Shown piece after piece: positions 6,476 to 47,383 of a DNA stretch of 64,000 nt (its first letter is position 1; each line of letters opens with the position of its first letter). Source of the stretch: an uncultured bacterium (GTDB lineage: Bacteria; Patescibacteriota; Minisyncoccia; UBA6257; GWB1-50-10); contig CAVYJB010000001.1 of the NCBI GenBank assembly GCA_963768835.1, forward strand, positions 216,420-280,419, written 5' to 3'. The notes beneath the pieces are model-generated. The model searched no databases. It had not been told where the DNA came from and saw nothing but the letters and a program-made list of their open reading frames with translations. The translations under genes were made by a program, and so were the position numbers.

Positions 6476-6582
6476 ACAGCTCATTTTTTTATGCCATCAA
6501 GAGGACCGCGGGCGTAAGCCCGTGAAGTTTCATTTGTCAATTGATTTTTCTTATGGTTTAATAGGTACAGGTAGATACAAGG

Positions 6583-7836: not shown

Positions 7837-7857
7837 CCCGGGACAATCAAAAGAATA

Positions 7858-17976: not shown

Positions 17977-19638
17977 CTACTGCGCCAGATATTTGTCCAG
18001 GTTCAAGCCTTGGACATTTGTATGAGCAGTGTTCGGCCAGTTGGCGGCATCGAAGCGGGGCGCCGTCAGGCGGTAGGAGACCTGTCCGGCAGCGCTCCCA
18101 CGAATGGTGAGTGTCTCGCGGGAGACGTCCTTCTCGTACCACACGTCCCCGTCGAAGGACGGGAGAAGGAGCACCGCCACTTGCCTGAAGTTCGAAGCAA
18201 GATTCGCCGCGTTGGCGAAAAGCCAGAGATCGGATCCTTTCGGCGCGCCAGCAAGGTCAAGGGTTGCCGCATAGCCATTCCCCTGTTTTGTGAGCGTCGC
18301 CGTCCCCGCCGTCTCCTCCTTCTGCCCCGTCATACCGGTTCCGTAGGTCGCGTACTGTTTGCCACCAATGGTGTAAACCGGGTCCCAGGTAGCGACTGTG
18401 ATCTTCCCCCCGGCCAAGGAAAGCCATCCGCCGGCCGCGCTCGTAAGGGTCATGTTGCCGCTCGTGCCCGCCTGGAACCAGAGAGTCCCACCGTTGATAC
18501 CGATGGCATACTTGTTCGAACCATCATCCCAAAGAATGAGCCGGTCGCCACTTGCAATAGCTCCCGCCCCGCCGGGCCCAGAGTAGCCGCCATTGGAGAT
18601 AAGGACGGCGCCGTTTACATATAACGCCTCACCCACCACCGAAGAGTTCCCGACATCCATCTTGTAGCCGGTGGAATTGGGGTAAAGACCGCTTCCGGAG
18701 AGGGTCCAGTAAGGCGATGCAGCGCCCGCGGAACCCGTGGGGCCAGCGGGGCCGTTCGCGCCCGCGAAACCTCCGGTAGGACCTCGCGGACCGGTAGAGC
18801 CCTGCGCACCCGCGAAACCTCCGGTCGGACCTTGCGGACCGGTAGGGCCGTTTGCGCCCGCGAAACCTCCGGTCGGACCTACGGGCCCGGTCGAGCCGTT
18901 TGCTCCGTTCGTGCCGGTCGGACCTCGCGCACCCGTCGGACCCGCGGGACCCGTCCCGCCCGCAGAACCGTTCGTCCCGGCGGCTCCCTGTGGACCCTGC
19001 GGACCTGTTGCTCCGTTAGAACCGTTTGAGCCAGTAGGCCCCCTGGCGCCCGTAACTCCTCCGGGACCGGTTGCGCCGATCGCGCCGTTCGTGCCGGTCG
19101 GACCTTGGGCACCCGTAGGACCGCCAGGGCCTGTACCGCCAGTAGAACCGTTCGCGCCATTCGTGCCAGTCGGACCCCGCGGACCGGTCGGACCAGTTGG
19201 GCTTGCGCCATTCGCTCCCGCAGGACCTCCGGGGCCTGTGGGGCTCGTACCGTTCGCGCCCGCGGGCCCCGTGGAACCTGTGGGGCCCTGCACGCCAGTC
19301 GGACCCGCGGTCCCCGAAGGGCCGGTAACACCGGCGATTCCCTGGGGACCCGTTGGAGAAATTCCATTCGTGCCTGCAGGCCCCATGGGACCCGAAGGGC
19401 CAGTCGCACCTTGCGCTCCATGCCAGTTCACCCACGATGAACTGTTGCAAATTAAGTGTGACCCCGTCGTGGAGGAGAAGTAAACCGTACCGGCGTTAGC
19501 TGAGTTGCAGGTGACGGGCGGCGTCGAGGTCGGCACAAAATTGAGCGTTGTAAGTTGCTGCCCGCTCGCAACCAAAGCGACGCCCATTCCGGCAATGAGG
19601 ATGACGCCAGCGAGGTTGTGGAGAGTGCGTCGATCCAT
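17977..19638 (-). CDS. collagen-like triple-helix repeat protein (GPT/GXY repeats) with conserved C-terminal globular domain
   Basis: signal peptide, about 80 Gly-X-Y triplets rich in GPTG/GATG, C-terminal ~240 aa shared with 19651..21369 and 31237..32307. Confidence 0.8.
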
Positions 19639-19650
19639 AGCAGTACAGGC

Positions 19651-21369
19651 TTATCGGGAAAGGAACGTGTCGAGGTTCAGCCCTTCTGTTGCTTCGTTGG
19701 AGGTATTCGGCCAGTTGGCACTGTCAAAGCGAGGTGCGGTCAGACGATAGCTCACCTCGTACGGTCCGGCATCGGAAGCGCTGCTGTTCTCTCGGCCGAG
19801 AATCGTGAGTGTCTTCGCAGCTATGTCCTTCTCATACCACACGCGACCGGGGAACGAGGGGGTCACGAGTGCCGTGAGCCCGTCGAAAGCGTTCACAAGG
19901 TTGGTCGCCTTTCCGAAAAGCCAAACGTCCGAACCCTGGGGGAGATTATTAAAATCAAAAACGTACGCGAGGAGACCTGGCGTACCCGTCGGCTGGAGAT
20001 CGACAAGCCCCGCCGTCTCCTCCTTTTGTCCTGTCATACCGGTTCCGTAGGTCGCGTACTGTTTGCCACCAATGGTGTAAACCGGGTCCCAGGTACCCAC
20101 GGTAATTTTCCCCGCCCCTCCATAAGGACCGTTGCCCACGGTGAGTGTGCCCCCAGAGCCGTTTGAAAGACTCATATATCCGCTCGTGCCCGCTTGGAAC
20201 CAGAGGTTTCCACCGACGATCCCGATGCTGTACTTGTTCGAACCATCATCCCAGAGGATAAGCCGGTCGCCCGTGCTGATACTGCCCGCGGCTCCTGGGC
20301 TGTTCACCGTGCCGGGGTTTATGAGCGCAGCGCCCGTGACATTCAGTTTATAATTCCCCGGCGAGGAGTTCCCGATACCGACATTGTAGGTAGTGGAATT
20401 CGGGTAGAGACTGCTTCCGGAGAGGGTCCAGTAGGAACTCCCTGCGCTGCCCCCAGGACCCGTGGGGCCGGTCGAACCGGTTGGGCCCGCAGGACCCTGA
20501 ATACCTGTAGGACCAGCGATACCGGTTGGGCCCGCAGGACCCTGAATACCTGTAGGACCAGCGATACCGGTCGGACCCGCAGGACCCTGGATACCCGTAG
20601 GACCTACGCCACCGTTCGTGCCTGCAGCACCTTGAAGACCCGTGGGGCCGTTGGGACCGGTAGGGCCTACACCACCGTTAGAGCCGTTCGAGCCTGTATT
20701 GCCAGTGGGACCGGTAGGACCCGCACCACCGTTGGAACCTCCGGCGCCTGTAAGACCCGTGGGACCGGTGGGACCGGTGGGACCCCCACCGCCATTGGAG
20801 CCGGCAGAACCCGTGAGCCCCGTCGGGCCTGTGGCACCCGTGGGACCTGCACCACCGTTAGAGCCGTTCGAGCCTGCTGCACCTTGAAGACCTGTCGGGC
20901 CTCCCGGACCTGTTGAACCATTGGTTCCTGCGCTTCCCGTCGGACCTGTCGGGCCTGTTGAACCGTTCGAACCTGCACCTCCCGTGGGACCTGCCGAGCC
21001 AGTAGGTCCGGTCGGACCCTGCCCTTGACCCGTAGGGCCGGTCGCACCCTGAAGACCTGTGGGACCGTTCGAGCCGTTCGCGCCCGCCGAGCCTGAGGGA
21101 CCCGTAGGGCCGGTCGCGCCTGTGGCGCCAGCGTAGGTACTCCACCCTACACCATTACAGATGTACTCATTATTATCTGTGCCGAAATAGACAGCTCCTT
21201 TATTGGATCCGCCGCTGCAGCTGAGAGGCGCCGAAGCCTGAGGCACGAATTTAATGCTTTGAAGCAACTGGGCCTGCGCAAGGTAGGCAACACCGCTTGC
21301 GACAACTGCAAGCGCGAGTCCGATAACGACATGCTCGATCCTAAAATGTTTCCGCATGCGGGGGAACAA
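19651..21369 (-). CDS. collagen-like triple-helix repeat protein, paralog
   Basis: same architecture as 17977..19638; conserved [28 protein letters not shown] block. Confidence 0.8.
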
Positions 21370-21375: not shown

Positions 21376-21858
21376 TCACTTCGCAAGACTGAGACATGAA
21401 GCGACCCGCGTTTTATCGGTGAGGGTCGAGCAGAGGGACGGGTTTTTGGAATCGCGCGCCATCACAATGATCGTGCTGTCCACACACCCACTTTGATAGA
21501 CCGGATTTTCTATATTGTTACAGATGGAAGTGTTCTTTGCGTCTCCTGCCTGCGCCGTAAATACGGCGACGCGGCAATATTCTTTTGAAGAAGAAATCCC
21601 GATCATATCGCACTTTGTGAGGTCGCGGTTGTTCTGCGCATCCGTCGTCATCGCGCGGATGGCAGCCGGGTCGGTCACAAGAGGCACTGAAGGCACGGGC
21701 TGCGGAGATACGGCTGACCCTCCCCCCGCGCCAGGGTTCATCTGCCCTGACCCGATGACACCACCAAGATAAAGCACCGCGACGAATGCGAAGACGATGA
21801 CCGCAATGACGCCTGCTAGAACCTTAGGATCCTTTTTCCAATCAGCTCCGTTTTCCAT
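21376..21858 (-). CDS. small membrane-anchored Cys-rich protein
   Basis: ORF runs to 22305 but overlaps the + strand gene; start at MENGADW (21858) gives 160 aa with one TM helix. Confidence 0.45.
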   Translation of the reverse strand: MENGADWKKDPKVLAGVIAVIVFAFVAVLYLGGVIGSGQMNPGAGGGSAVSPQPVPSVPLVTDPAAIRAMTTDAQNNRDLTKCDMIGISSSKEYCRVAVFTAQAGDAKNTSICNNIENPVYQSGCVDSTIIVMARDSKNPSLCSTLTDKTRVASCLSLAK

Positions 21859-21987: not shown

Positions 21988-23766
21988 ATGGGATATACTT
22001 ACCGCATGGAATCCCGACCGCGCATGCCCGCACGCACCCGAACCTTCGTGGCGTGTGCCCTCGGGGTACTCGCGCTCACCATTCTCGCCTACTCGAATCA
22101 CTTCGGTAATACCTTCCATTTCGACGATACGCACACCATCGTGGATAACGCCTATGTCCACGACATCACGAACCTCCCCCGCTTCTTTACAGACGTCCGG
22201 ACAAACAGCGCGACACCGAACAACCAGGTCTATCGTCCTCTCCTTCTCTCTCTCTTCGCGCTTGACTACTGGATCGGCGGCGGGCTGAACCCCGTCGTTT
22301 TCCATCTCACAATCTTCGCATTCTTCCTCCTTCTCGGTTTCCTTCTCTTTCTTGTCCTCAAGAAGGTGATGGACCAGGCGCGCCCAGGACCCCGGAACGA
22401 TATCATCGCACTCATCGGGACCGCGCTCTTCCTTCTCTCCCCCGCAAACACCGAAGGTGTGAACTATATTTTCTCAAGCTCGGAGGTCCTGGTGACCGTG
22501 TCCGTACTCGCTGCGTTCGCGCTCTACCTCTACCGCCCTGCGTGGAGGAAGTATTGCCTCTACCTCATCCCCATCGTCCTCGGCTCGCTCGTGAAGCTCT
22601 CGACTGTGATGTTCGGCCCGCTCCTTTTCGTCTACCTCTTCTTCTTTGAGCATGAGGACCCCACACCGCGTTTCGCGCGCCGCTTCGCCCGCGCACTCGC
22701 GCAGTCGGCGCCCGCCCTGATCCTTTCGGGCATCCTTTATCTTTTCGTCCGTTCGATGGACGCGCCCTGGGTCGTCCTCTCGACCACGCCGGTCTGGAAC
22801 TATCTCATCACGCAGCCGTTCGTTCTTTTGAGCTACGTCACGACGTTTTTCCTCCCGATCCATCTCTCGGTCGACACGGACTGGGGTGTCGCGACCGGCG
22901 TGCTCACCCCCGGGGTGCTCATCGGCGTCGCGTTCATTATTCTCTCGCTCATCGCCGCCTACCGTACCTCCCTCAAGCGCGAAATGCGGCCCATCGCGTT
23001 CGGCATCCTCTGGTACTTCATCGCCGCGCTTCCCACCTCAAGCATCGTCCCTTTCTCCGAGGTGACGAACGACCACCGCGCTTTCTTCTCCTACGTCGGG
23101 CTCGTGCTCGCGCTTGTGTGGTCCCTCTATCTTCTCTTCGAGCGCCACCACGAGCTGTTCGCCCGCGACCGGCGCCTCCGAGCCCTCCTCTACGCTCTCA
23201 TCTTCGCGGTCCTCGCGGCGAGCGCCATCGGAACGTACAACCGTAACAAGGTATGGAAAACCGAGGAATCGCTCTGGCAGGACGCCGCGGAAAAGAGTCC
23301 CTTGAACGGCCGGGCACTCATGAACTATGGCTTAACGCAGATGGCGAGGGGGCACTACAGCACGGCGAAGGAATACTTCGAGCGGGGGCTCACGCTCCTG
23401 CCGGCGTATCCCTATCTCGAGATCAACCTCGGCATCGTGAACAACGCGCTGGAGAACACCGCGGACGCGGAGGCGCACTTCGCCCGCGCGTACGCGCTCG
23501 CGCCCGACCTCCCGCAGGCAGCATTCTACTACGGGCAGTTCCTTTACACGCACGGTAGCTCGACCGACGGGTTCCCGCTTCTCGCCAAGGCGCTTACGGA
23601 GAGCCCCGGAGCACTCGACGCGCGGGATTCCATTATGCAGACCCTCGCCGACGCCCACGATTACGCGCGGCTCGCGGACATCGCACGTCAAGTCCTTGCG
23701 TCCTCACCGAACGACCCGACCGCCCTCCGGTACCTCGGGATGGCCGCAACATCCACCGCGCCGTAG
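21988..23766 (+). CDS. polytopic membrane protein with C-terminal TPR repeats (GT-C/PMT-like glycosyltransferase candidate)
   Basis: about 11 TM helices then TPR-like ALMNYGLTQMARGHYSTAKEYFERGL repeats. Confidence 0.7.
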   Translation: MGYTYRMESRPRMPARTRTFVACALGVLALTILAYSNHFGNTFHFDDTHTIVDNAYVHDITNLPRFFTDVRTNSATPNNQVYRPLLLSLFALDYWIGGGLNPVVFHLTIFAFFLLLGFLLFLVLKKVMDQARPGPRNDIIALIGTALFLLSPANTEGVNYIFSSSEVLVTVSVLAAFALYLYRPAWRKYCLYLIPIVLGSLVKLSTVMFGPLLFVYLFFFEHEDPTPRFARRFARALAQSAPALILSGILYLFVRSMDAPWVVLSTTPVWNYLITQPFVLLSYVTTFFLPIHLSVDTDWGVATGVLTPGVLIGVAFIILSLIAAYRTSLKREMRPIAFGILWYFIAALPTSSIVPFSEVTNDHRAFFSYVGLVLALVWSLYLLFERHHELFARDRRLRALLYALIFAVLAASAIGTYNRNKVWKTEESLWQDAAEKSPLNGRALMNYGLTQMARGHYSTAKEYFERGLTLLPAYPYLEINLGIVNNALENTADAEAHFARAYALAPDLPQAAFYYGQFLYTHGSSTDGFPLLAKALTESPGALDARDSIMQTLADAHDYARLADIARQVLASSPNDPTALRYLGMAATSTAP

Positions 23767-23772
23767 CAGCCG

Positions 23773-25956
23773 CTACGGCGTTTTCTTCATGGCGGCGGTC
23801 AGCTGGTCCAGGTTATTCTTGGCCCGCGTGAAGTCGGGCTTCAGGGCGAGCGCTGTTTTGTAGGCTGCGAGAGCGCTGTCGTCCATCCCCTTCGACTGGT
23901 AAACGAATCCGAGATTGTTGTAGGCCTCGGCGTAGGAGGAATTCTCCCGTATAGCCTCTTTGGTGGCCGCGAGCGCGGTATCCCAGTCACCCGCCTCGAT
24001 GGCCACGAAGCCGAGATTGAAGAAATTCTCCGGCGTGGGAGTCGCGTCCGCGACACGCTGCGCGGTCGCGACGTTCGCGGCGTTCTGCGCCGCGATGCCC
24101 GGCGCGGTGTCATTGATATAGTACACAAAGATGGAGTGGCCGATGGTCGTGACGGGCCGGTAGGCTCCGAGCCATCGGTAGGAATCGCTGGACCAACCGT
24201 TCCTCGGGCCCGGTTCTGTCTGTCCCCACGCGAGCGCGCGGGCCGGGATCGCGACCCATCCCAGGACCGGGGTTGCAGGAGGAAGTTCGCGGTACCGGTT
24301 CCCGAGGTAGTACGGGAAACTGGAGCTGAACGCGGCGGCGGAGAAAAGCCCCGGCGTGCCCTCGTACGAGACGGCGACCTGCGACGCAACCTGGATGGTC
24401 GGAATACCCTGAGCCCCGACCCAGTCCGCGAGACGCCGGGCATCCTGTCCCCAATCGAGATCGGTGTCGACCACGTAGCGGTAGCCGCCATCGGGGCCGC
24501 CCACGAGTTCGTTGAAGTAGGCGAGGAAGGAGGGATAGACCGAGGCAACCGCGATCACCTGCCACGCGATGAGCGCGGTCACCACGATGACGCGCCAGAC
24601 TTTGCCGTTCTCGAGCCATTGGGCGACTCCGGCGCCAATCAGGAGAAACACGAAGGGGAGCGTCGGGATGAGATATCGGACGCCGGTGTTGATGGAATTC
24701 GGCACGATGAGAACGAACCAGTAGAAAAGTACCCAGAGGACCGCCGCGGCCGTGAAGAGATGTGCGCGGATCCACGGCGCGACGACGGTGGTGTAGGTCT
24801 CGCGCACTTTCTTGCGCGTGAGCGCTCCGAGCCCGACGAGAATCGTGATCAGCGTGAGGATATGGAATGCGAGCGGCTCCTTGATGGCGTACCCGACCGG
24901 GAAGAAAAGCGGGAAACCGGTCGTCGAGCCCTGGCCCTCGAAGTACGCGAACGCGGATCCTCGCGTGTACTGCCAGAGAACTCCGGTCAGGTATTCGGCG
25001 AACGGCCGCAGCACCGGAACGGTCGCGAGCGACGAGATCTCCGGCGCAAGAGGCGCCCATTTTGTCGAGGTTATGATGGTCCGGATATCGTCGGCCTGCT
25101 GCCCGGCCGGGTACCGGGCGATGTGGAGCTGGTAAACGGCTCCCACCACCACGATGCAGACAAGCCCTATAAGGAGTAGTTTGGGGAGAATCGCCCGGAC
25201 GCCCTTCCAGAAGGAACGCCACCCTGCGCTCCGCGCGACGGCCCACACGACCACGAGCAGAAGGAAGAACGGAATGAGGAGGAGGAGCGAGAACTTCACA
25301 AGCTCCGCGATGCCGAGCACGACGCCGGCGGCGAGCGCGGTCTTGCGGGTGGGCGAACCGAGAAACCGGACAAACCAGTAGGTCGCCAAGAACGCGGCGA
25401 ACGCCGTCATCACGTCCGTCGTCACGAGACGCCCATGCCCCAAGATGAGCGGCGAGGTCGTGAAGAGCGCAAGCGCGATGAAGCCCGCGGTCGTTCCCCA
25501 GTGCCGGCGGGTCAGCGCGAATACGCACCACCCGAAGAGGAGTGTGAGAAGGATCATGGGCAGGCGAGCCCACCAGAGAATCACATCGACCGGCTTCGTC
25601 TGGTTGAACAGGAATTGCTCACCAAAGGACCACACCGCATCGCTCAGGTTGGTGCCCGGCGGAAGATTCAAGAAATCGGAGGCGGGACGAAGGTTGAGAA
25701 ACAGGAGCGGAATCGCCGCGATATCCCGCACGAGGGGCGGGTGCTCGAACCCGACACGCATCGTCTGTTCCGTAAGATAGAGATAGCCGGTGGGAAGATA
25801 GAGGGACTCGTCCGTCGTATAGGTATCGCCATGCACGGAGAACGCCATCGCGGTCCCCATCCCGAGGAGCAGCGCGCACGCGAGAACCGTTTGCCAGGAG
25901 GGCTGCCGGAACCTCTTTTTCGGATGCTCGTCCACGCTACAGAGTATACTCGACAA
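23773..25956 (-). CDS. GT39/ArnT-PMT-like membrane glycosyltransferase with C-terminal TPR repeats
   Basis: N-terminal multi-TM domain typical of polyprenyl-phosphate-sugar dependent GT-C enzymes; C-terminal TPR (AYNNLGFVYQSKG...). Confidence 0.75.
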   Translation of the reverse strand: MSSILCSVDEHPKKRFRQPSWQTVLACALLLGMGTAMAFSVHGDTYTTDESLYLPTGYLYLTEQTMRVGFEHPPLVRDIAAIPLLFLNLRPASDFLNLPPGTNLSDAVWSFGEQFLFNQTKPVDVILWWARLPMILLTLLFGWCVFALTRRHWGTTAGFIALALFTTSPLILGHGRLVTTDVMTAFAAFLATYWFVRFLGSPTRKTALAAGVVLGIAELVKFSLLLLIPFFLLLVVVWAVARSAGWRSFWKGVRAILPKLLLIGLVCIVVVGAVYQLHIARYPAGQQADDIRTIITSTKWAPLAPEISSLATVPVLRPFAEYLTGVLWQYTRGSAFAYFEGQGSTTGFPLFFPVGYAIKEPLAFHILTLITILVGLGALTRKKVRETYTTVVAPWIRAHLFTAAAVLWVLFYWFVLIVPNSINTGVRYLIPTLPFVFLLIGAGVAQWLENGKVWRVIVVTALIAWQVIAVASVYPSFLAYFNELVGGPDGGYRYVVDTDLDWGQDARRLADWVGAQGIPTIQVASQVAVSYEGTPGLFSAAAFSSSFPYYLGNRYRELPPATPVLGWVAIPARALAWGQTEPGPRNGWSSDSYRWLGAYRPVTTIGHSIFVYYINDTAPGIAAQNAANVATAQRVADATPTPENFFNLGFVAIEAGDWDTALAATKEAIRENSSYAEAYNNLGFVYQSKGMDDSALAAYKTALALKPDFTRAKNNLDQLTAAMKKTP

Positions 25957-25987
25957 CCTTTCTTGATGGAACCTCAGGAATGCGGGT

Positions 25988-27028
25988 ATGATGAGACCAA
26001 TGACGACACCTCGTCACATCCTCGTGACCGGCGGCGGCGGATTCCTGGGGTCAGTGCTTGTCCCTCTTCTCCTCGACCACGGGTACCACGTGACTGTCCT
26101 TGACCGTTTCTTCTTCGGGCGTGGCACGCTTGCCGCGTGCTCCTCGAACCCCCGCTGCAAGCTTGTCGAAGCCGACACGCGCACCGCGCCGGAGACCCTC
26201 TTCCAGGGCATCGATTCCGTCGTCGACCTTGCGGCGCTCTCGAACGACCCCTTGAGCGAGCTCAAACCCGAAACGACCCTCGACATCAACTTCCACGCCC
26301 GGGTGCGCACCGCGACGCTCGCGAAAAGGCACGGAGTGGGACGGTACGTGCTTGCCTCGACCTGCAGCGTCTACGGGTTCCAAAACGGCGTTCTCACAGA
26401 GACCGCCGTTTTGAATCCGCTCACGACCTACGCGCGCGCGGCCGCGCGCGCCGAGGAACGCACCCTCGCGCTCTCCGACGGAACCTTTGCGGTGACCGCC
26501 CTGCGGCAGGGAACGCTCTATGGCCTTTCGCCGCGAATGCGCTTCGACATCGTGGTGAATACCCTCACGCTGTCGCTCTTCCGCGACGGGAAACTCCACC
26601 TCAACGGGGGCGACCAGTGGCGTCCCCTCCTCCATGTGGGAGACTCCGCCCGCGCGTTCCTTGCCGTGCTGGAGGCGCCCCCCGCGGCCGTCGGAGGCCA
26701 GGTCTTCAACGTCGGTGCAACAGCCCAGAACTTCCAGCTGAACCACCTCGCCACGCTCATCGTACGCACCCTCGATATCCCGCCAAGGATAGAGACGACG
26801 GAGGCGTACGACCATCGTTCGTACCGAACCTCCTCCGCGAAAATAGAGCGGACCCTCGGCTTCATGACGCAGAAAACGCCGGAGCACGGCGCGCGGGAGG
26901 TGTACGGGGCGCTCCGCACGGGAAGCGTCACTGCAGAAAAAAGCACCATCACGCTTGAGTGGTACAAGCATCTCCTCTCAGGCGACCCGGGGATTCTCGA
27001 TCCCCGCGATATCTCCCACACCGCATAA
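25988..27028 (+). CDS. NAD-dependent epimerase/dehydratase (SDR family)
   Basis: ILVTGGGGFLGSVLV Rossmann motif. Confidence 0.85.
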   Translation: MMRPMTTPRHILVTGGGGFLGSVLVPLLLDHGYHVTVLDRFFFGRGTLAACSSNPRCKLVEADTRTAPETLFQGIDSVVDLAALSNDPLSELKPETTLDINFHARVRTATLAKRHGVGRYVLASTCSVYGFQNGVLTETAVLNPLTTYARAAARAEERTLALSDGTFAVTALRQGTLYGLSPRMRFDIVVNTLTLSLFRDGKLHLNGGDQWRPLLHVGDSARAFLAVLEAPPAAVGGQVFNVGATAQNFQLNHLATLIVRTLDIPPRIETTEAYDHRSYRTSSAKIERTLGFMTQKTPEHGAREVYGALRTGSVTAEKSTITLEWYKHLLSGDPGILDPRDISHTA

Positions 27029-27034
27029 CGGCCT

Positions 27035-28312
27035 ATGACTACCACAGCTCTCCACGAAGGACGGGCGCCTCTCCGCCATTCCGCTGCATGTCTTATCTGC
27101 GGCGGCACGAAACTCACGCCGTACCTCGACCTCGGAAGGACCGCGCTCGCGAACTCGTACCTTACCCCGCGCGACCTCGGGAAACCGGAGTTCACGGCCC
27201 CGCTTGTCGTCCACTGGTGCCACACCTGCCACTTGGCGCAGCTTCTCGATATCGTGGATCGCGAGCTTCTCTTCCGGGACTACGCCTACTTTTCATCGAC
27301 CTCTCCGCAGCTTTTCCAGCATTTCGGCGAGTACGCCGAGGACGTCATGCGCCGATATCCGAACCAGGCCAAACGCCTCGTTCTTGAGATCGCCTCGAAC
27401 GACGGAATACTCCTCGAGCCGTTCAAGGCGCGCGGGTGCAAGGTGCTAGGCGTTGACCCGGCACGGAACGTCGCGGAGACCGCGAACGCAAAAGGGATTC
27501 CCACGATGCCTGAGTTCTTCGGTGTGAAATTAGTCCCCGAGATCCTCGCGCAGCATGGTCCGGCAGGAGTCGTGACCGCGAACAACGTTCTTGCGCACAC
27601 GGACACGCTCCATGATATCGTCGCGGGAACGAAAGCGGTCCTTGCGCCCGACGGAATCTTCGTCTTTGAAGCGCAGTATCTCGCTGACCTTCTGGACCAC
27701 AACGAATTCGACAATACATACCACGAGCACATCTGTTACTTCTCATTCTCCCCGCTTGAGTTTCTTCTCGAACGCCACGGCCTGAAGGTCATTGACGTAC
27801 AACACGTCGGCACGCAGGGCGGTTCTCTCCGCGTCTTTGCCTCGCACGCCGCTGCGACGTTCACAGAGACCTCCGCCGTCGGAGCGCTACGAGCCGTGGA
27901 GCACGAACGAGGCCTTGACCGTGCGGAAACCTTCCTCGCGTTTTCCGCTCGGCCCGCGGAGGTCAAAAAACGCCTGACGACGCTCCTCGGCAACCTGAAG
28001 AAGAACGGGAAGCGGATCGCCGGATACGGCGCGCCGGCGAAAGGCAACACCCTTCTTCAGTATTGCGGTTTGGGGAACGAAACCTTCGATTATCTTGTTG
28101 ATACCGCACCCTCGAAGCAGGGTACCTACGCGCCGGGGAGCCACATCCCCATCTTTCATCCCGACCACGCGAAAGGGAACCGGCCCGATTACCTCGTCAT
28201 CCTTGCCTGGAACTACGCGGACTCCATCCGAGAACGGGAACGATGGTTCACTGATGCGGGCGGGACGTTTATCGTTCCGATACCCGAGCCCCAAGTATTT
28301 GCAACCGCATGA
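27035..28312 (+). CDS. NDP-hexose C-methyltransferase-like class I SAM methyltransferase
   Basis: N-terminal Cys4 zinc-ribbon (CLICGG...CHTCHLAQL), central methyltransferase fold, C-terminal C-methyltransferase-like domain. Confidence 0.75.
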   Translation: MTTTALHEGRAPLRHSAACLICGGTKLTPYLDLGRTALANSYLTPRDLGKPEFTAPLVVHWCHTCHLAQLLDIVDRELLFRDYAYFSSTSPQLFQHFGEYAEDVMRRYPNQAKRLVLEIASNDGILLEPFKARGCKVLGVDPARNVAETANAKGIPTMPEFFGVKLVPEILAQHGPAGVVTANNVLAHTDTLHDIVAGTKAVLAPDGIFVFEAQYLADLLDHNEFDNTYHEHICYFSFSPLEFLLERHGLKVIDVQHVGTQGGSLRVFASHAAATFTETSAVGALRAVEHERGLDRAETFLAFSARPAEVKKRLTTLLGNLKKNGKRIAGYGAPAKGNTLLQYCGLGNETFDYLVDTAPSKQGTYAPGSHIPIFHPDHAKGNRPDYLVILAWNYADSIRERERWFTDAGGTFIVPIPEPQVFATA

Positions 28313-29142
28313 ACGCGCGAAACGACACGATCCTTCTGACCGGGGGAGACGGCACGGTGGGAAACCAGTTTCCGGCTGATGTAAAACCTCCGCGGAGCGA
28401 GTTTGATATTCTGGACCCCGAAAGTATTTCCCGAGCTCTCGCGCGGTACCGCCCCTCGGTCATTGTCCATCTCGCGGCAATGACCGACATGCTCGCGTGC
28501 GAGCAGAATCCGGATGCGGCGCACGCGACTAATGTCACGGGAACCGCGAATCTCGCGACCGCGTGCCGTGGACATGGCGTTTTCCTTGTATATGTTTCGA
28601 CATGCGCGGTATTTGACGGGTCGAAGGCCACTCCTTATACCGAGCAGGATAAGCCAAGTCCTCGCTCCGTCTACGGAAAAACCAAACTTCTCGGCGAGCG
28701 CGCCGCGCTCGAAACCGTTCCCCATGCGCTCGTCGTGCGGACGGGTTGGCTTTTCGGCGGCGCGGGCAAACAAGGCAACCACTTCGTGGAAAAAGCGATC
28801 GCGACATTCAAGCAAAACAGACCCGTCAGAGCGACCGATGACCGCTATGGCTCGCCGACCCTCATCTCCGACTTCGCGATCGCGGTCCGTTCGCTCATTG
28901 AATCCCGGGCGTCTGGCGTGCGCCACGTCGTGAATGACGGCTTAGCGTCGTACCTCGACATCGCGAATGCGATCCAAACCGCAGGGTCGTTTGCCGCGCC
29001 CGTCACCCCCGTTCCCGCGAAGGTCGTCGAAAATCCGGTTGTCTACCGCGGGGCGATGGAAGGACTCATTTCGGAGCATATGCGCTTGCGGCGCTGGAAT
29101 GATGCGCTCCGAGAATACATGGGAAGCGGGATGTTAGGATAG
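28309..29142 (+). CDS. dTDP-4-dehydrorhamnose reductase (RmlD)-like SDR
   Basis: ILLTGGDGTVG motif, 277 aa, overlaps upstream stop. Confidence 0.75.
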   Translation: MNARNDTILLTGGDGTVGNQFPADVKPPRSEFDILDPESISRALARYRPSVIVHLAAMTDMLACEQNPDAAHATNVTGTANLATACRGHGVFLVYVSTCAVFDGSKATPYTEQDKPSPRSVYGKTKLLGERAALETVPHALVVRTGWLFGGAGKQGNHFVEKAIATFKQNRPVRATDDRYGSPTLISDFAIAVRSLIESRASGVRHVVNDGLASYLDIANAIQTAGSFAAPVTPVPAKVVENPVVYRGAMEGLISEHMRLRRWNDALREYMGSGMLG

Positions 29143-29161
29143 ACCGCGCGAGGCGTGCGGT

Positions 29162-29908
29162 CTATTTCTTCCGCCGGAATAGCGCGTCGTGTATGAGCCC
29201 TACGCGGGCGAGAAGGTAGCGCGTGAGAATGGAAAGGTTCCAGGTTGCCGTCGGAAGCGCGGCGTGCCAGAAATTTTCGGAGGTATGCTCCCCCCGATAA
29301 TCGCATCGGACCGGGATCTCTTCGATCCGAAGGCCGAAATATTTTGCCTGGACGATGACCTCGAAGCTGAAAGCGTAGTTGTCGCCCGTCGGACTGAAAT
29401 CGAGTGTCTCGACAAGCCGCCGGCTGTACCCCCGAAAACCTGAGAAGAATTCGGAAAGCGGGATGCGGAGCACGATGCGACAGAGGAGGCTGAATGCTCT
29501 GTTTGTGGCATACCGGGAGAACGGCATCCCGTCGCGGAGGGCCTGGCGCGGATCGGAGAATCGCGTGCCGAGCAACATGTCGCATCCCGCCCGCATGCAT
29601 TCGAGCGCCGCAGGAATCACCGCCGGGTCGTACTGCCCGTCACCGTGGATCTCAATGCAGCAGTCGGCTCCGAGCTCCATCGCCCGCGCGAGCCCGTACT
29701 TGATATTCCCGCCATACCCCGTGTGCGGATGCTTGAACACCGTGAGACCGAGCTTTCGGGCGATCGCCACCGTACCGTCGGAGGAACCGTCATCGGACAC
29801 GATCACCGCGTCGAGCATCCCTTTCGGAATTCTCCGCACGGTGCTCTCCAGCATCGAGGCGCAGTTGTACGTCAAAATAATCCCTATCGCTTTGGAGGTA
29901 GTGGGCAT
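29162..29908 (-). CDS. GT2 family glycosyltransferase (polyprenol-phosphate sugar synthase-like)
   Basis: GIILTYN...VSDDGSSDGT...HGDGQYDP motifs of GT2 DPM1/ArnC-like enzymes. Confidence 0.85.
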   Translation of the reverse strand: MPTTSKAIGIILTYNCASMLESTVRRIPKGMLDAVIVSDDGSSDGTVAIARKLGLTVFKHPHTGYGGNIKYGLARAMELGADCCIEIHGDGQYDPAVIPAALECMRAGCDMLLGTRFSDPRQALRDGMPFSRYATNRAFSLLCRIVLRIPLSEFFSGFRGYSRRLVETLDFSPTGDNYAFSFEVIVQAKYFGLRIEEIPVRCDYRGEHTSENFWHAALPTATWNLSILTRYLLARVGLIHDALFRRKK

Positions 29909-29914: not shown

Positions 29915-31240
29915 TTAGAGAAATTTCACGTTGTATTCGAGCAGGATGCGGTCGATGACCGGCGACCGCTGAGTCGTCGTACCGGGCGTCATCCGGGCGC
30001 GCCAGAAAAACTGCGTCCCATGCGGATTGTCGAACACGACGGTTTCGCCCACGTGCGCAGCCTTCCATGCCACGCCGTCATTCGAGACCGAAAATTCGAT
30101 GGAGCCTCCCCCCGTCGTCGAATCAAGCTCACGGATGGTCGCGCCCCGCACTTCCGCATGGTAATTATTGATGTTTGTCGATACCACATCGACCGGGCGA
30201 CTGGTATCGAAACCCTCGTCCGTGAAACGGTAGACTCCGACCGTCCCGTCTTCGGAGCGCACCGTGACCGACAACTCCGAACCTCCCGCCGGGACGGCCG
30301 TGACCGTCCGGTTCTGGTTACCCGGGAGGACGAGCGGAGTCAGGTCGACGGCGCCTTCAATAGACCCGGCCCCGTTCTCGAACAATTTAATGAGGCGGGA
30401 GGTACCGAAGCTCGCGTTCGTCACGTACCAGGCATCGCCCTGACGCACAACCGCGGGAGTGAAACCTCCCGCCATCGCCCGCATATCGAAGAATTGAGAG
30501 ATGTCCTCATGGGAGCCGTCGCCTTTGAAAAGATCCGCGCTCCCGACCACTGAACCATAGAGCGCAATCCACGCATCTCCATCGCCGCCGATTCCAAACT
30601 CCGCAGGCGCGGACGAGTAGAAATGGTACGCCGCCCCGCTTGCAATGAGCGTAAAGCGGTTCCCGTCGAATCCGTAGAGCGACCCCTCATACTGTGACGA
30701 CATTTTTTCGACAAACCCCACGACCCAACGATCCCCCACCACCTGCGCGGTAATCGAGGTCACCTCGGCAGGGGTCACGCTCGGAGGGAAAGTAATCTCC
30801 TGGCCGTTCAGTACCAGATGCGAGGCATCGGTCCGAAGGCATGCGCTGCCTATGCAGGTTACGTGGCTTCCTCCCGCCGCTTGGTTCGCAGGAGCCGTGC
30901 TTGAGGGTTCCGGTTCCCACACGAACTTCGGGCGCAACATCACCGCGGTCTCCGACATATCCAGATACGCTGTCGTGGATGCTTCGTCGAGGCGCGCGTA
31001 TCCGGAGAAGAGATCGGTAAAGGTTGTCGGGACCACATCCTCGGGAGCCCCCGCGACGGATGTGGTCTTGACCACCCCGAGCCGGGTAAGAAAAGTGTCC
31101 GCGACAGAAAGATACGCGGCGTGGTCCAGATTGAGGAACACCAAGAGGAGAATGATCCCTCCTAGGACGAAAAGAAAACCGGCGGAACAGAGCCGCCGCA
31201 TTTTTGCATCGCGTTCACCGTTGAGCAACTCGCATCTCAC
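29915..31240 (-). CDS. secreted hypothetical protein
   Basis: signal anchor FLFVLGGIILLLVFL; ATGA overlap with upstream gene. Confidence 0.6.
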   Translation of the reverse strand: MRCELLNGERDAKMRRLCSAGFLFVLGGIILLLVFLNLDHAAYLSVADTFLTRLGVVKTTSVAGAPEDVVPTTFTDLFSGYARLDEASTTAYLDMSETAVMLRPKFVWEPEPSSTAPANQAAGGSHVTCIGSACLRTDASHLVLNGQEITFPPSVTPAEVTSITAQVVGDRWVVGFVEKMSSQYEGSLYGFDGNRFTLIASGAAYHFYSSAPAEFGIGGDGDAWIALYGSVVGSADLFKGDGSHEDISQFFDMRAMAGGFTPAVVRQGDAWYVTNASFGTSRLIKLFENGAGSIEGAVDLTPLVLPGNQNRTVTAVPAGGSELSVTVRSEDGTVGVYRFTDEGFDTSRPVDVVSTNINNYHAEVRGATIRELDSTTGGGSIEFSVSNDGVAWKAAHVGETVVFDNPHGTQFFWRARMTPGTTTQRSPVIDRILLEYNVKFL

Positions 31241-32307
31241 TGGCTAAGATTGAAACTTGCGGCTTCGGTCTGGTCTTTCACGAACGTTGGCCACGCGGCG
31301 TGATCGAAGCGTTCCCCGGAAAGCCGGTAAGAGAACTCGATTGGTTGATCCCCGCGGAACACGATCTGATCGTTGCCAATAGTGTAGTACATGTTTGCAA
31401 ACCCTCCATAGGGAGTTGCAATCGCATCGACGGTATCGCGCGAGAAATCCACGACCTTCCGCCACAGCCAAAGGTCGGAACCTTGCGGCAGGCTCGCAAA
31501 GTCGATCACGTATTCATACTCGCCCGCCGGGGTGTTCCCGTCCGCCGCAAGCTTCGCATGCCCTACGTATTCCTCGCGTACCCCTCCGGCGATCGAGGGG
31601 CCGAATGTCGCGTATTTCTTGCCCCCGATGTCGTAGAGCGGATCGACGGTCGTCACGGTTATCTTGCTGACCGCGGTAATCTGGTTGCCGTTCATGTTGA
31701 GGTTGCTCTGCGCCGCACCGCCCATGAACCAGCCGCCCGTCGCCCGGAACGTGCCTCCCACGTCAAGCAAATAGGAGGGTGAAACGACGCCAATCCCGAC
31801 GCTCGTCGCGAAGTACCCCCCGCCGTAGACCGAGAGTGCCTGAGGAAGTCCGAGGTTCGAAGAGGTGGAAACACCGAGGTTCCCCGGAAAGGCGTAGTGG
31901 CCATTCCCCGTGTTCGATCCAAAGACGCCAGATTGGACCCAGCCGGCCCCCACGGCGCCGGAGAACGGACCTATAAAGCCTAGCGCCTGCACGTTACCGT
32001 TCACGGTAAGCGCCTGAGGCGGCGTCGAGGTTCCGATGCCGACGTTACCGTTCGGAAAGAAAAGGATGTGTTGGTTCGAACCTCCCTGCGTGAGAAAGGT
32101 CATTGTGGGTTGCGTCGAGTAGATGGTCGTGGTGCCGATGCCGAGAGCTCGTGATGAACTCGCGAAGAGAAGCCAGCAATTGCCGGAAGGCGGCGTGGCA
32201 CAGGGCCCTTGGAAAGTTTGCGCGTTCGCGAGAGGGATCAATGTCGCGAATGCGCCCACGAGAAGGACTCCTAATCCGATACTGAAATGCTGAAGATTGA
32301 TTTTCAT
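31237..32307 (-). CDS. secreted Gly-rich protein sharing the collagen-like proteins' C-terminal domain
   Basis: signal peptide; C-terminal ...TVDPLYDIGGKKYATFG...LPQGSDLWLW aligns with C-termini of 17977..19638 and 19651..21369. Confidence 0.65.
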   Translation of the reverse strand: MKINLQHFSIGLGVLLVGAFATLIPLANAQTFQGPCATPPSGNCWLLFASSSRALGIGTTTIYSTQPTMTFLTQGGSNQHILFFPNGNVGIGTSTPPQALTVNGNVQALGFIGPFSGAVGAGWVQSGVFGSNTGNGHYAFPGNLGVSTSSNLGLPQALSVYGGGYFATSVGIGVVSPSYLLDVGGTFRATGGWFMGGAAQSNLNMNGNQITAVSKITVTTVDPLYDIGGKKYATFGPSIAGGVREEYVGHAKLAADGNTPAGEYEYVIDFASLPQGSDLWLWRKVVDFSRDTVDAIATPYGGFANMYYTIGNDQIVFRGDQPIEFSYRLSGERFDHAAWPTFVKDQTEAASFNLSQ

Positions 32308-32311: not shown

Positions 32312-32845
32312 TTAGGGGATGACTACGAAAAGCCCTTTTATTTTCCCCGACGAGGGGCATAAGTCTCGGCACTGGAAGTCGAAGGAACCCACCGCAGTCG
32401 CTTGGAAACCGACCAACTGCGTTTCTCCTTTGCGTATCGTCTGGTAGATGCCGAGGTATGGAAACTCGATATCATAGTTGCTATCCTTGGCCGTGATGGC
32501 TATCTGCACGTCCGCGCCCTTCCGGACCGTGATTAACGAGGGACTAAATCCTCCCGCATCCACCGTCATAGTGAAAAATTTGAATGCGGCGCTCAAGTTC
32601 TGCGACGGAGAAGGAATGACATTCGTCGGCTTTGTGGGGACGACACCTGCAGGCGTCGCGTCCACGTAACCCTGCGGAGCGACGGTAGGAGGCGCAGCGG
32701 CTTCATTTATTCCGCTCCCCGCGGGGACGGTCGCAACGGGCGCAGTGGTGGGAGAAGAAGAACGGAGCAAAAGCACCGCGAGTAATACGATGATAACCAA
32801 CCCCCCGATGGTCCCACCCACGATGGTGAGTTGCTCGCGCTTCAT
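32312..32845 (-). CDS. membrane-anchored hypothetical protein (possible cupredoxin-like fold)
   Basis: N-terminal TM helix, Pro/Thr/Ala linker, ~100-aa beta-rich C-terminal domain. Confidence 0.5.
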   Translation of the reverse strand: MKREQLTIVGGTIGGLVIIVLLAVLLLRSSSPTTAPVATVPAGSGINEAAAPPTVAPQGYVDATPAGVVPTKPTNVIPSPSQNLSAAFKFFTMTVDAGGFSPSLITVRKGADVQIAITAKDSNYDIEFPYLGIYQTIRKGETQLVGFQATAVGSFDFQCRDLCPSSGKIKGLFVVIP

Positions 32846-32960: not shown

Positions 32961-33926
32961 ATGAAGGCGCACCGCGCAGCGCTCCTCTATGCAGCCGCCA
33001 TCCTCCTGGTGCTGGCGTTCCCTATTCTTTTTGCCCCGCGAGCCGAAGCTTCAACAAATATAAGCGCGGTCGCCACGGAACACTTCTCCTGGAACGACGC
33101 TATCGGCTGGATGGATTACTACGGAGATGGGGTGACGCAGAACGTGAATGTGACCGGTATCGCCCTTTCCGGCTACGCCTCATCCAGCATCGGCCCCATC
33201 TCTCTCGACTGCGCCACCTCCCCCAGCGGGAACATCTGCGTTTCCAAATCGAACTACGGCGTCTGTAACGGACGGTCGGGCGTGCACCAGACCAACGGCA
33301 CCTGCACGGGCGGCGAGGGCGACGGGAACCTCTCCGGCTACGGATGGAACGATCAGGTGGGGTGGATTAGCTTCAGCTGTGCAAACCGAGGGATAGTCCC
33401 CTGCAGCCAGGAACAGGTTAGCATCGACTCGAACGGCAATTTCACGGGATGGGCATGGAATGACACGGTGGGATGGATCAGTTTTAACTGCTCGGACCCG
33501 GGCGTCTGCGGAACCTCAACCTACAAGGTGAAGAGTACGTGGGCTCCCACAAGCACCGTCGCGACACTCGATTCGCAGGTTCTGGACACCCAGATTACGA
33601 CCGGCGCGACGCTCAATAGCCTCCAGTGGGCGGGCTTGAGCCCGAACGCCACCTGTGTGAACTTCCAGGTCGCCGGTTCCATGACCTCAAGCGGTCCCTG
33701 GACCTTCCAAGGCCCGACGGGCGACACCACCAGTTGGTACGGCGCCCTCTGCAGCGTGAGCATCTGGGGTGGGACAGGCTGCGCGCCGCCCTCGACCGCC
33801 ATTTGCGTGAACCCCCAAAACCTCTCGGGCTATCGCTACTTCCGATACCGTGTGCAACTCCAGACGAACCCGCAGGGCACCTCCTCACCGCGCATCGATG
33901 ACGTCATTTTGAACTGGTCCCGCTAG
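32961..33926 (+). CDS. secreted Trp-rich repeat protein
   Basis: signal peptide; three repeats WNDxxGW(I/M)(S/D)FxC. Confidence 0.65.
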   Translation: MKAHRAALLYAAAILLVLAFPILFAPRAEASTNISAVATEHFSWNDAIGWMDYYGDGVTQNVNVTGIALSGYASSSIGPISLDCATSPSGNICVSKSNYGVCNGRSGVHQTNGTCTGGEGDGNLSGYGWNDQVGWISFSCANRGIVPCSQEQVSIDSNGNFTGWAWNDTVGWISFNCSDPGVCGTSTYKVKSTWAPTSTVATLDSQVLDTQITTGATLNSLQWAGLSPNATCVNFQVAGSMTSSGPWTFQGPTGDTTSWYGALCSVSIWGGTGCAPPSTAICVNPQNLSGYRYFRYRVQLQTNPQGTSSPRIDDVILNWSR

Positions 33927-45013: not shown

Positions 45014-45091
45014 AAGTTTGTACCGACAATTTTATAAATCTTCGCCGCCATCGGCTCTTGCGCGGATGAGCGCAAAACAAATTCCATTTGT

Positions 45092-45216
45092 AGAACCGCC
45101 GCCTTGCCTCGGGAACGCTCGTAGTGGATTTCAAAAAGCCCTTTTCCTCTCTGGCCGAAACGCAGGAGAAGACGCGAAGCGTCCAAAATATTTTTGAGAG
45201 AGATGAACTTTGGTGG
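45092..45216. repeat. inverted repeat A, right copy (ends in TGGTGG = inverted CCACCA)
   Basis: reverse complement of 43513..43636. Confidence 0.85.
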
Positions 45217-45478: not shown

Positions 45479-45528
45479 AAATAATATACCAAACTGGTAT
45501 ATTCCACAATCGATTATAACGTGTTAGT

Positions 45529-45753: not shown

Positions 45754-45758
45754 ACGGC

Positions 45759-47375: not shown

Positions 47376-47383
47376 TAAATCAA

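Follow-up and report, generated by a model that had tools for sequence, protein, structure and literature searches.

We propose that a block of genes at positions 22024 to 29908 of the DNA presented here, a stretch of 64,000 nucleotides that we call the window, encodes a lipid-carrier system of the three-component type, which would O-glycosylate collagen-like fibres outside the membrane with a 3-C-methyl hexose. To this reading we assign a probability of about 0.58. The window is chromosomal, with CorA, CysRS, DnaB and RecR genes downstream, lies on a contig of 353.5 kb and stems from a genome of the Patescibacteria (candidate phyla radiation, CPR), where the block lies inside the cluster of surface-protein genes. 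Loci designated L002 onward are other contigs used for comparison. We are confident of the gene functions at the family level. The genes that carry the proposal are the following:

17977..19638, minus strand: collagen-like surface protein A (colA), a proposed acceptor (Pfam Collagen, 65 bits)
19651..21369, minus strand: collagen-like surface protein B (colB), a proposed acceptor (Pfam Collagen, 72.9 bits)
22024..23766, plus strand: protein 1, a predicted TMTC-like glycosyltransferase of the GT-C class with tetratricopeptide (TPR) repeats (fold model, hhalign, Pfam TPR)
23773..25860, minus strand: protein 2, a GT-C enzyme of the PMT_2/GT39 type with TPR repeats (Pfam PMT_2, TPR_1/2/11)
25988..27028, plus strand: extended short-chain dehydrogenase/reductase (SDR), probably a nucleoside diphosphate (NDP)-hexose C4 oxidoreductase (Pfam Epimerase, 126 bits)
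27035..28312, plus strand: predicted NDP-sugar 3-C-methyltransferase (C-MT) of the TylC3/TcaB9/KijD1/MtmC type (Pfam and PDB matches)
28309..29142, plus strand: RmlD-like NDP-4-keto-sugar reductase (Pfam RmlD_sub_bind, 204 bits)
29162..29908, minus strand: small family 2 glycosyltransferase (GT2), 248 amino acids, a predicted polyprenyl-phosphate sugar synthase (Pfam Glycos_transf_2, 58.5 bits)

Identical genes are found on an independent Logan assembly, which allowed the starts of the two membrane proteins to be refined to 22024 for protein 1 (21988 in the first list of open reading frames) and 25860 for protein 2 (formerly 25956), yielding products of 580 and 695 amino acids. An apparent 309-residue minus-strand frame overlapping protein 1 is really a gene for a 160-residue, Cys-rich protein at 21376–21858, here called small160. 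With these two starts revised, the six genes picked out in an earlier note on this DNA, from SDR to GT2 and the two membrane proteins, are real, long reading frames with strong family matches. The block is kept on three other contigs (L002, L033 and L043), whose G+C contents of 46%, 44% and 36% compare with about 61% for the block in the window. L002 retains a collagen-like gene together with those for small160, the TMTC-like and PMT_2 proteins, SDR, C-MT, RmlD-like reductase and GT2 at 40–60% identity, while L033 and L043 keep the core of the block with SDR and C-MT fused. Since 45–60% amino acid identity is preserved on other contigs, the block is no chance set of reading frames. In the window, SDR, C-MT and reductase genes form a plus-strand operon with a 6-nt gap followed by a 4-nt overlap of reductase start and C-MT stop, and are translationally coupled. 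Fusions of SDR with C-MT (P0127, P0146, L033, L043) and of SDR with GT2 (L083) place SDR, C-MT and GT2 in one pathway.

The sugar C-methylation pathway that the earlier note had read from the block is borne out by its C-methyltransferase, which is by sequence a clear member of the TylC3/TcaB9/KijD1/MtmC family. It matches MtmC (4RV9) with 336 bits over residues 15–421 (expectation value, E, 2e-99) and two further structures with 290 (5T64) and 278 bits (3NDI), along with the Pfam models Methyltransf_13 (71.5 bits), Methyltransf_23 (66.4) and Methyltransf_14 (188.4). Identity to characterised family members is about 45% over the full length, the zinc-ribbon cysteines C19, C22, C62 and C65 are present, and a YHEH motif aligns with that of MtmC. 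From this kinship we infer methylation of an NDP-4-keto sugar, presumably at C3 rather than C5. The following gene had been called an RmlD-like 4-ketoreductase, and this assignment agrees with the 204-bit RmlD_sub_bind match, a YGKTK motif and PDB matches to dTDP-4-dehydrorhamnose reductases (E 4.5e-35 and weaker). The enzyme scores 195.6 bits against the NCBIfam model rmlD (TIGR01214), below its cutoff of 224, and is therefore named RmlD-like and not RmlD.

Generation of the keto sugar would fall to the SDR. Its closest solved relative, at 116 bits, is 6VO6, which we take to be Cj1427 of Campylobacter jejuni. Cj1427 is a GDP-heptose C4-dehydrogenase that oxidises its substrate without dehydrating it (PMC10680097). 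The NCBIfam model for dTDP-glucose dehydratase gives the window SDR 62.8 bits against a cutoff of 365, and the classical Ser/Thr-Tyr-Lys triad is incomplete. On this point the sequence departs from what had been expected: a 6-deoxy sugar had been suggested, and the sole candidate for generating a keto group has neither the Asp/Glu pair of a dehydratase nor the Lys of YxxxK, with no dehydratase elsewhere in the block. The missing lysine is not peculiar to the window. Among the best 151 sequences of an exhaustive HMMER search (the query and 150 relatives), 47 have N, C, A, S or R in its place, including the closest relatives, both SDR–C-MT fusions listed there and the orthologues in L002, L033 and L043; in cassette members further removed the lysine persists, as part of YALSK or YALTK. 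Such lysine-less enzymes are encoded directly upstream of a DegT aminotransferase (L035) and between RmlC-like and RmlD-like genes (L036). Because they occupy the positions of keto-sugar generators, we propose a route of oxidation, C-methylation and reduction. Lysine-less extended SDRs form a coherent clade (window 25988–27028; P0127–P0270; L002, L033, L043) and, if active, would be of interest to enzymologists. Related loci pair the C-MT with RmlA and RmlB (L041) or with an RfbF-like cytidylyltransferase (L034), and the dehydratase-type neighbour in L041 keeps both TDE and YSASK.

The small GT2, which carries the motif HGDGQY, resembles synthases of lipid-linked sugars in its sequence. Its best NCBIfam matches are PpgS (66.1 bits, cutoff 370), dolichol-phosphate (Dol-P) hexose transferase (63.6 bits, cutoff 375) and AglJ (54.7 bits, cutoff 325), and the sole PDB sequence match is the dolichol-phosphate mannose synthase (DPMS) of P. 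furiosus (5MLZ, E 3e-10). These affinities fit the DPM1/ArnC-like character ascribed to it earlier, and we regard it as DPMS/PpgS-like. The orthologue in L002 has a more hydrophobic C-terminus.

Genomic context points in the same direction. A metagenome scan for the GT2 family returned 80 loci, 34 of them flanked on either side by 1.5 kb or more. A C-MT homologue is found near the GT2 in 58 of the 80 (30 of the 34 with adequate flanks), at a median spacing of 102 bp and often in the order SDR–GT2–C-MT–RmlD-like, so that in many cassettes the GT2 gene lies between those for SDR and C-MT. For 20 of 21 well-flanked loci, a reading frame with at least seven membrane helices occurs within 5 kb of the GT2, compared with 27% for random anchors in control loci, and a PMT_2 gene adjoins the GT2 in the window, L002, L039, L043 and others. 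Two arbitrarily chosen homologues both have a C-MT and a polytopic protein as neighbours: L039 encodes Wzy_C-TPR, PMT_2, GT2, RmlD-like and C-MT proteins, whereas in L041 genes for C-MT, RmlB and RmlA face those for the GT2 and a 570-residue polytopic protein. Loading of a lipid by the GT2 is predicted because of its DPMS/PpgS-like affinities together with this near-obligatory pairing with C-MT and polytopic proteins, and the module suggests that methyl-branched sugars are delivered via lipid carriers. We consider it likely that these genes together handle a C-methyl sugar by way of a lipid carrier. The four-gene cassette itself is widespread, occurring from L043 to L122 and also on marine (TARA) contigs, with examples in L060 (6844–10771), L062 (2532–6422) and L083 (6894–10861); no description of it was found in the literature searched.

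The claim that two GT-C/PMT-like TPR enzymes are encoded held for both membrane proteins, on different grounds. Protein 1 has a polytopic N-terminal domain of about 410 residues with some 9–13 membrane helices, followed by TPR repeats (about residues 414–576; Pfam TPR_2, TPR_14, TPR_16 and others at about 429–561 of the 592-residue frame), which is the architecture of TMTC proteins, a GT-C domain and then a C-terminal TPR region. An AlphaFold model of the full length (predicted local distance difference test, pLDDT, 91; predicted template modelling score, pTM, 0.90) shows paired helices at residues 414–576, and a Foldseek search with it returns TPR proteins only. When the transmembrane part is modelled by itself (pLDDT 84.6, pTM 0.89), GT-C enzymes account for 10 of the top 12 Foldseek matches in the PDB, among them AglB (3WAJ), PglB (6GXC/3RCE), ALG3 (9S6R), STT3 and ArnT (5EZM), with probabilities of 0.95–1.0, query-normalised TM-scores of 0.34–0.50 and modest E values of 0.013–0.1; matches outside the GT-C class have probabilities of at most 0.35. 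Furthermore, hhalign relates the families of protein 1 and protein 2 over 223 N-terminal columns (87% probability, E 3.6e-6). Sequence models are less forthcoming: no Pfam glycosyltransferase matches protein 1, its membrane part has no Pfam domain, and a profile of that domain finds nothing among PDB sequences. Of the two membrane-protein domains named earlier for checking, PMT_2 is found in protein 2, and TMTC_DUF1736 fails to match protein 1 even at E up to 10; the latter matches 2 of 16 relatives (best E 0.017), and a few relatives weakly match PMT_2. Judged from its modelled fold, protein 1 is a GT-C enzyme with TMTC architecture that falls outside DUF1736.

Conservation within the family of protein 1 is concentrated in the motifs HFDD (D34, D35), E144-x-x-N147, DTDW (D284, W287) and NDHR (349–352). 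The first membrane helix is immediately followed by D34, invariant across 40 relatives, and by D35, kept in at least 90% of them; D284 is likewise invariant and W287 at least 90% conserved, the likeness of DTDW to TMTC enzymes being a resemblance only. Helix order and an assumed cytoplasmic location of the positively charged N-terminus predict that the polar motifs and the TPR domain face outward. The family is large and spans several phyla, keeps the combination of membrane domain and TPR, and includes relatives labelled 'protein O-mannosyl-transferase' by the Joint Genome Institute. TMTC-like genes of other phyla (L037, L038) have no conserved glycosylation neighbours, so the pairing with glycosylation genes is not universal. 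In L003 (6704–19384; GCA_046704425.1), a high-GC (63%) genome that is not CPR-like, a TMTC-like gene whose product shares 47% identity with protein 1 lies between a GT2 and methyltransferase pair and a repeat-rich surface protein of more than 3099 residues, possibly a further enzyme–substrate pair for this family.

Protein 2 passes PMT_2 with 46.1 bits against a cutoff of 26.1 and also matches TPR_1/2/11. It has an extracytoplasmic C-terminal domain with two C-terminal TPR repeats and gives no Pfam match to the luminal MIR (beta-trefoil) domain of eukaryotic-type PMTs. The residues D17-E18 of its first loop are invariant in 27 relatives. Members of the family come mostly from Parcubacteria and Nealsonbacteria and are named 'glycosyltransferase family 39 protein' by their sources. 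Its TPR tail is unusual within the family; in L033 the TPR region is a separate gene of 159 codons. A third GT-C enzyme at 12048–14648 could not be established, with an hhalign probability of 4.6% against the PMT_2 family. This protein of 866 residues has 12 membrane helices and a weak PTPS_related match (E 0.01), and it is conserved at 42% identity beside the same cluster in L008; an overlap of 88 nt between its annotated N-terminus and the adjacent gene makes a later true start probable.

That collagen-like proteins flank the block, as claimed at the outset, is supported by the Pfam Collagen matches and by triplet counts. Protein A consists of a signal or anchor segment, a Cys-containing N-terminal domain, roughly 69 G-x-y triplets, among them 23 G-x-T, and a C-terminal domain common to the collagen-like proteins and their paralogues, which we abbreviate CTD. 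Protein B has 67 triplets, 32 of the form G-x-T, and a CTD 62% identical to that of protein A. In the window, a collagen-like gene adjoins the TMTC-like gene, as it does in L002 and L083. The case of L083 stands apart: in 742 kb of sequence, most of it anchored on the GT2, L083 3122–4798 is the one collagen-like reading frame, and directly downstream of it comes the only TMTC-like gene that was detected there, followed on the same strand by an SDR–GT2 fusion, C-MT and RmlD-like reductase, in what reads as one operon. The collagen protein (Pfam Collagen and Peptidase_S74) belongs to another family than the CTD proteins, with a Peptidase_S74 C-terminal chaperone, and the contig is not CPR-like (PilZ, PD40 and EamA neighbours, GC 55%). 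L083 is thus probably an independent, non-CPR replicate of the arrangement of collagen, TMTC-like and cassette genes. The CTD loci point the same way: glycosylation genes are close by in 6 of the 7 whose CTD protein has collagen repeats, though of a different kind in L018, L022 and L023 (transmembrane-TPR protein, small GT2, DegT and PglD-like proteins), and in 2 of the 22 without such repeats. We judge it an even bet or a little better that the collagen-like proteins are the acceptors.

Four further genes tie the block to its surroundings:

21376..21858, minus strand: small160, small Cys-rich protein of 160 amino acids with a single membrane helix (gene call)
29915..31201, minus strand: unk428, conserved secreted or anchored protein of 428 amino acids (gene call, CTD-cluster neighbours)
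31237..32307, minus strand: CTD356, collagen-less CTD paralogue of 356 amino acids (alignment to protein A)
32312..32845, minus strand: membrane-anchored cupredoxin-like protein (Pfam Cupredoxin_1, 40.5 bits)

The GT2 gene is the last in a minus-strand operon of cupredoxin-like, CTD356, unk428 and GT2 genes, with gaps of 4, 35 and 6 nt. The genes for small160, colB and colA, in this order, run divergently from the TMTC-like gene across 165 bp, and gaps of 6–12 nt around colB suggest an operon headed by small160. CTD356 is 33% identical to protein A over the CTD and keeps the invariant motif, with a triplet count of zero. Homologues of unk428 adjoin CTD proteins in L012, L028, L030, L031 and L032, and those of the cupredoxin-like protein, a conserved neighbour of CTD proteins, occur in L005, L010, L013, L014, L026 and L028. 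For small160, whose family has repeated C-x-n-C motifs, homologues adjoin the TMTC-like gene in L002 (3596–4057) and L033 (6476–6919) and a collagen-like CTD gene in L008 (3410–3889). Neither small160 nor unk428 has a Pfam or PHROG match.

The CTD, with its conserved motif KITVxTxDPxYxIGGxxYATY, has no solved relative among PDB structures when searched with a sequence profile. Its relatives lie mostly on contigs of metagenome-assembled Patescibacteria/CPR genomes (one genome per GTDB species was searched), labelled Paceibacterota, Liptonbacteria, Falkowbacteria, Gottesmanbacteria, Komeilibacteria and others, with a few contigs bearing other automatic labels. In 28 CTD loci the usual neighbours are secreted proteins of 515 and 321 residues, the 428-residue and cupredoxin-like proteins, and proteins with a Por_Secre_tail domain. 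As the glycosylation block is not among these conserved neighbours, we view it as an accessory insertion into a conserved surface-protein cluster. An origin of the collagen proteins from prophage or tail fibres was rejected, since PHROG matches are confined to the collagen repeats, with none in the CTD or any neighbouring gene, and the context is chromosomal.

Members of the surface cluster in the window (14561–16108, 29915–31201, 31237–32307, 32312–32845 and 32961–33926) have counterparts in L005–L032; apart from the Cupredoxin_1 match, no Pfam, PHROG or PDB relative was found for the surface-cluster proteins around the CTD. The gene at 16242–17897, where the GC content dips slightly, specifies a product with a Por_Secre_tail domain (the C-terminal sorting domain of type IX secretion), an odd finding for a CPR genome of a lineage that has neither an outer membrane nor a type IX secretion system; related proteins (31–36% identity) are encoded in this cluster in L006 and L008, and L012 and L032 yield short partial matches. 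Giant collagen-like CTD proteins of up to about 2200 residues and as many as 125 consecutive G-x-y triplets are encoded in L018 (2–11584), L022 (641–13523), L023 (3–12011) and L029 (7322–13799). Three type IV pilin-like genes follow each of them, and after these come genes for a small GT2 (L018, L022, L023), a protein with transmembrane and TPR regions (L018, L022), a DegT aminotransferase (L018, L023), a PglD-like acetyltransferase (L018) and a methyltransferase (L023). The sets in L018, L022 and L023 resemble another version of this scheme, one based on an amino sugar.

Taken as a pathway, the block might operate as follows. The SDR would oxidise C4 of a housekeeping NDP-hexose supplied from elsewhere in the genome, the C-MT would methylate C3 of the resulting 4-keto sugar, and the RmlD-like enzyme would reduce C4 to give an NDP-3-C-methyl-hexose; the chemistry of the first step and the substrate of the second are deduced from the enzyme families. 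The GT2 would then load the sugar onto polyprenyl phosphate, a flippase encoded elsewhere would flip the lipid-linked sugar, and both GT-C enzymes would transfer it outside the membrane, in keeping with the conserved acidic motifs and TPR domains predicted to face outward. Thr and Ser residues of the adjacent collagen-like proteins (17977–21369) are the presumed acceptors, with the TPR domains binding the substrate, and other members of the surface cluster may be modified as well.

Several observations weigh against this proposal. The SDR reads YARAA for YxxxK (Lys to Ala) and S-T-C-S for the dehydratase T-D-E, and its redox competence is uncertain because both the catalytic lysine and the acid/base pair of a dehydratase are absent. 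No flippase, nucleotidyltransferase or canonical 4,6-dehydratase is encoded in the block as judged by Pfam and NCBIfam. The GT2 stays far below the curated cutoffs of all named polyprenyl-phosphate glycosyltransferase families and has no clear membrane helix, no segment reaching 1.6 on the Kyte-Doolittle scale; polyprenyl-phosphate sugar synthases without membrane helices do exist. TPR domains also occur in the machinery of polysaccharide export. The comparison of CTD loci with and without collagen repeats is biased by queries drawn from collagen-positive loci and by the phylogenetic non-independence of the loci. Finally, most GT2/C-MT loci have no collagen-like gene (1 of 80 GT2-anchored loci has one) and most CTD loci have no GT2/C-MT module. 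Because the partner is missing on either side, the module is not dedicated to collagen-like proteins in general; it probably serves various acceptors, and acceptor specificity may reside in the TMTC-like enzyme.

These last counts lend weight to a rival in which the same machinery glycosylates something else, be it a cell-wall glycopolymer, a lipid, a teichoic acid-like polymer, pilins, an S-layer or other Ser/Thr-rich proteins, and the adjacency of the collagen genes reflects a shared 'surface island' instead of an enzyme–substrate pair. ArnC/ArnT, GtrB/GtrX, CsbB/YfhO and GacI/GacL set precedents for it, and the module stands beside glycan-assembly genes in L039 (Wzy_C-TPR, UDP-glucose dehydrogenase, Bac_transf) and beside GT4 enzymes and a polysaccharide deacetylase in L041. 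However, the GT2 gene shares its operon with a CTD paralogue, the TMTC-like gene diverges from the collagen operon, and collagen-like and TMTC-like genes are neighbours not only in the window and L002 but also in L083, an independent locus. In addition, TMTC- and PMT-type GT-C enzymes of known function modify proteins (PMC7801869, PMC7759382). We take the other-acceptor explanation seriously, if as an unlikely one. A different division of labour would make the GT2 an ordinary Leloir enzyme, which, acting in the cytoplasm, attaches the C-methyl sugar either directly to a protein or to a lipid-linked oligosaccharide, while the GT-C enzymes use another, housekeeping polyprenyl-phosphate sugar or act as oligosaccharyltransferases. 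The low GT2 scores and missing membrane helix would suit such an enzyme, as would the BclA-type collagen glycosylation of Bacillus, which proceeds via soluble glycosyltransferases. It becomes improbable given that the only solved relative of the GT2 by sequence is a Dol-P-Man synthase, that its top NCBIfam matches are all polyprenyl-phosphate glycosyltransferases, that a polytopic protein accompanies it in 20 of 21 loci, and that the block encodes no other glycosyltransferase, initiating phosphoglycosyltransferase, Wzx or Wzy with which to build an oligosaccharide. One could also imagine that the GT2 loads a common hexose and that SDR, C-MT and reductase edit the sugar on its carrier. This would explain a block without nucleotidyltransferase or dehydratase as well as the position of the GT2 between SDR and C-MT and its fusion to the SDR in L083, and it has parallels in DprE1/E2 acting on decaprenyl-phosphate-ribose and in the auxiliary epimerases of pentofuranose systems (PMC11127046). 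The C-MT family members that have been characterised all use NDP-sugars, though, and share about 45% identity with the enzyme of the window, while related loci carry RmlA/RmlB or an RfbF-like cytidylyltransferase beside the C-MT; editing on the carrier therefore seems very improbable. Synthesis of the C-methyl sugar at the nucleotide level, followed by lipid-linked transfer to the collagen-like fibres, remains the reading we prefer.

A wider and more tentative generalisation, which we consider doubtful at present, is that bacterial TMTC-like GT-C enzymes are dedicated O-glycosyltransferases of collagen-like fibres whose donor, a polyprenyl-phosphate-linked 3-C-methyl hexose, is made by the cassette with an SDR from the clade lacking the canonical lysine. 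If true, this would be the first branched-chain sugar on a lipid donor, and fibres with which Patescibacteria may contact their host would be decorated. Bacterial homologues of the human TMTC O-mannosyltransferases would thereby be given a concrete, testable function and a class of substrate. Also proposed is that ultra-small Patescibacteria build glycosylated collagen-like fibres on their cell surfaces, which are almost uncharacterised although these bacteria live as episymbionts by means of them.

Elsewhere in the window, genes for two peptidases, the first of type M16 and the second of type MA, come after that for a radical SAM/SPASM enzyme (5195–8526), and the three may constitute a peptide-maturation cluster like those for ribosomally synthesised and post-translationally modified peptides. 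The region 44024–61076 has a low GC content (43–47%) and encodes two large serine recombinases (44024–45013 and 50532–52130), a type III restriction-modification pair (53245–57673), a helix-turn-helix protein and a 309-residue reverse transcriptase (60147–61076). This region probably represents an integrated mobile island, in which the reverse transcriptase may be part of a retron or of a diversity-generating element.

Among known systems, the BclA glycoprotein of Bacillus had been invoked earlier as a parallel, which holds for the type of substrate and for the rare sugars and fails for the route. A C-methyltransferase takes part in making cereose and cillose, which are CDP-3-C-methyl-6-deoxyhexoses, and BclA is glycosylated in the mother-cell cytoplasm by soluble Leloir glycosyltransferases. 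In contrast to this cytoplasmic process, a lipid-carrier route outside the membrane is predicted here, the CTD is a mostly patescibacterial family, and the block has no CDP-glucose synthase or dehydratase. The exosporium glycoprotein BclA of Bacillus anthracis/cereus, with its anthrose and cereose/cillose pathways (PMC10050317), is a collagen-like, GPT-rich fibre that has a globular C-terminal domain and bears rare sugars; the proteins of the window have collagen-like G-x-T repeats and a C-terminal domain, and would likewise be decorated with a rare sugar. For the sugar pathway, the GDP-heptose enzymes of Campylobacter jejuni (Cj1427, Cj1430, Cj1428; PMC10680097) provide an analogous order of oxidation, modification and reduction, and the RmlC-like, SDR and RmlD-like arrangement of L036 recalls it; they differ in that similarity to 6VO6 is low (116 bits), in that 6VO6 keeps the lysine (YGIDK) absent from the YxxxK of the window SDR, and in that the modifying enzyme is an epimerase there and a C-methyltransferase here. 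Regarding collagen-like proteins or protein glycosylation in Patescibacteria, nothing relevant was found in the literature searched, the coverage of which was incomplete.

With the eukaryotic O-mannosyltransferases TMTC1-4 (PMC7801869), protein 1 shares a polytopic GT-C domain followed by TPR repeats, which are predicted here to be non-cytoplasmic as well, an acidic pair in the first loop, a D-W motif in a long loop before the last helices, and ArnT, PglB and STT3 as nearest solved folds. The host is bacterial, however, the donor is predicted to be other than Dol-P-Man and the acceptors are not cadherins; a bacterial TMTC-like member with demonstrated function was not found in the literature searched. 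The sequence of GT2, flippase and GT-C is also the logic of actinobacterial protein O-mannosylation by Ppm1/Pmt and of ArnC/ArnT, GtrA/B/X and the GT136 pentofuranose systems, in which auxiliary enzymes diversify the sugar (PMC11127046). The proposed system would differ from these in its C-branched cargo, in having no flippase gene in the block and in two GT-C enzymes conserved as a pair. No case of a C-branched or C-methyl sugar on a polyprenyl or other lipid carrier was found in the literature searched, which was covered incompletely.

By analogy of logic, the closest characterised system is the streptococcal Pgf system. In streptococci, a GT-A and GT-C enzymes (PgfS with PgfM1/M2; GtrB with PgtC2) glycosylate extracytoplasmic Ser/Thr-rich regions (bioRxiv 10.1101/2024.05.05.592596; PMC5856776), and the Pgf cluster holds the adhesin genes cnm, cnaB and cbpA (PMC5856776; bioRxiv 10.1101/2024.05.05.592596). 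Both systems combine a small GT2/GT-A enzyme, an SDR-type sugar enzyme (the epimerase PgfE in Pgf) and two polytopic GT-C enzymes, and in both, as predicted here from the genes, a single-membrane organism transfers sugars outside the membrane onto surface proteins whose genes lie in the cluster. They diverge in several parts: the GT-C enzymes of Pgf are of the YfhO type, whereas those of the window are TMTC-like and PMT_2/GT39-like, both with TPR repeats, and the window GT2 reaches only 23.8 bits against the PgfS model. While Pgf delivers GalNAc or Glc to disordered Ser/Thr-rich regions, the system proposed here would carry a 3-C-methyl hexose from a dedicated three-enzyme pathway to collagen-like G-x-T repeats.

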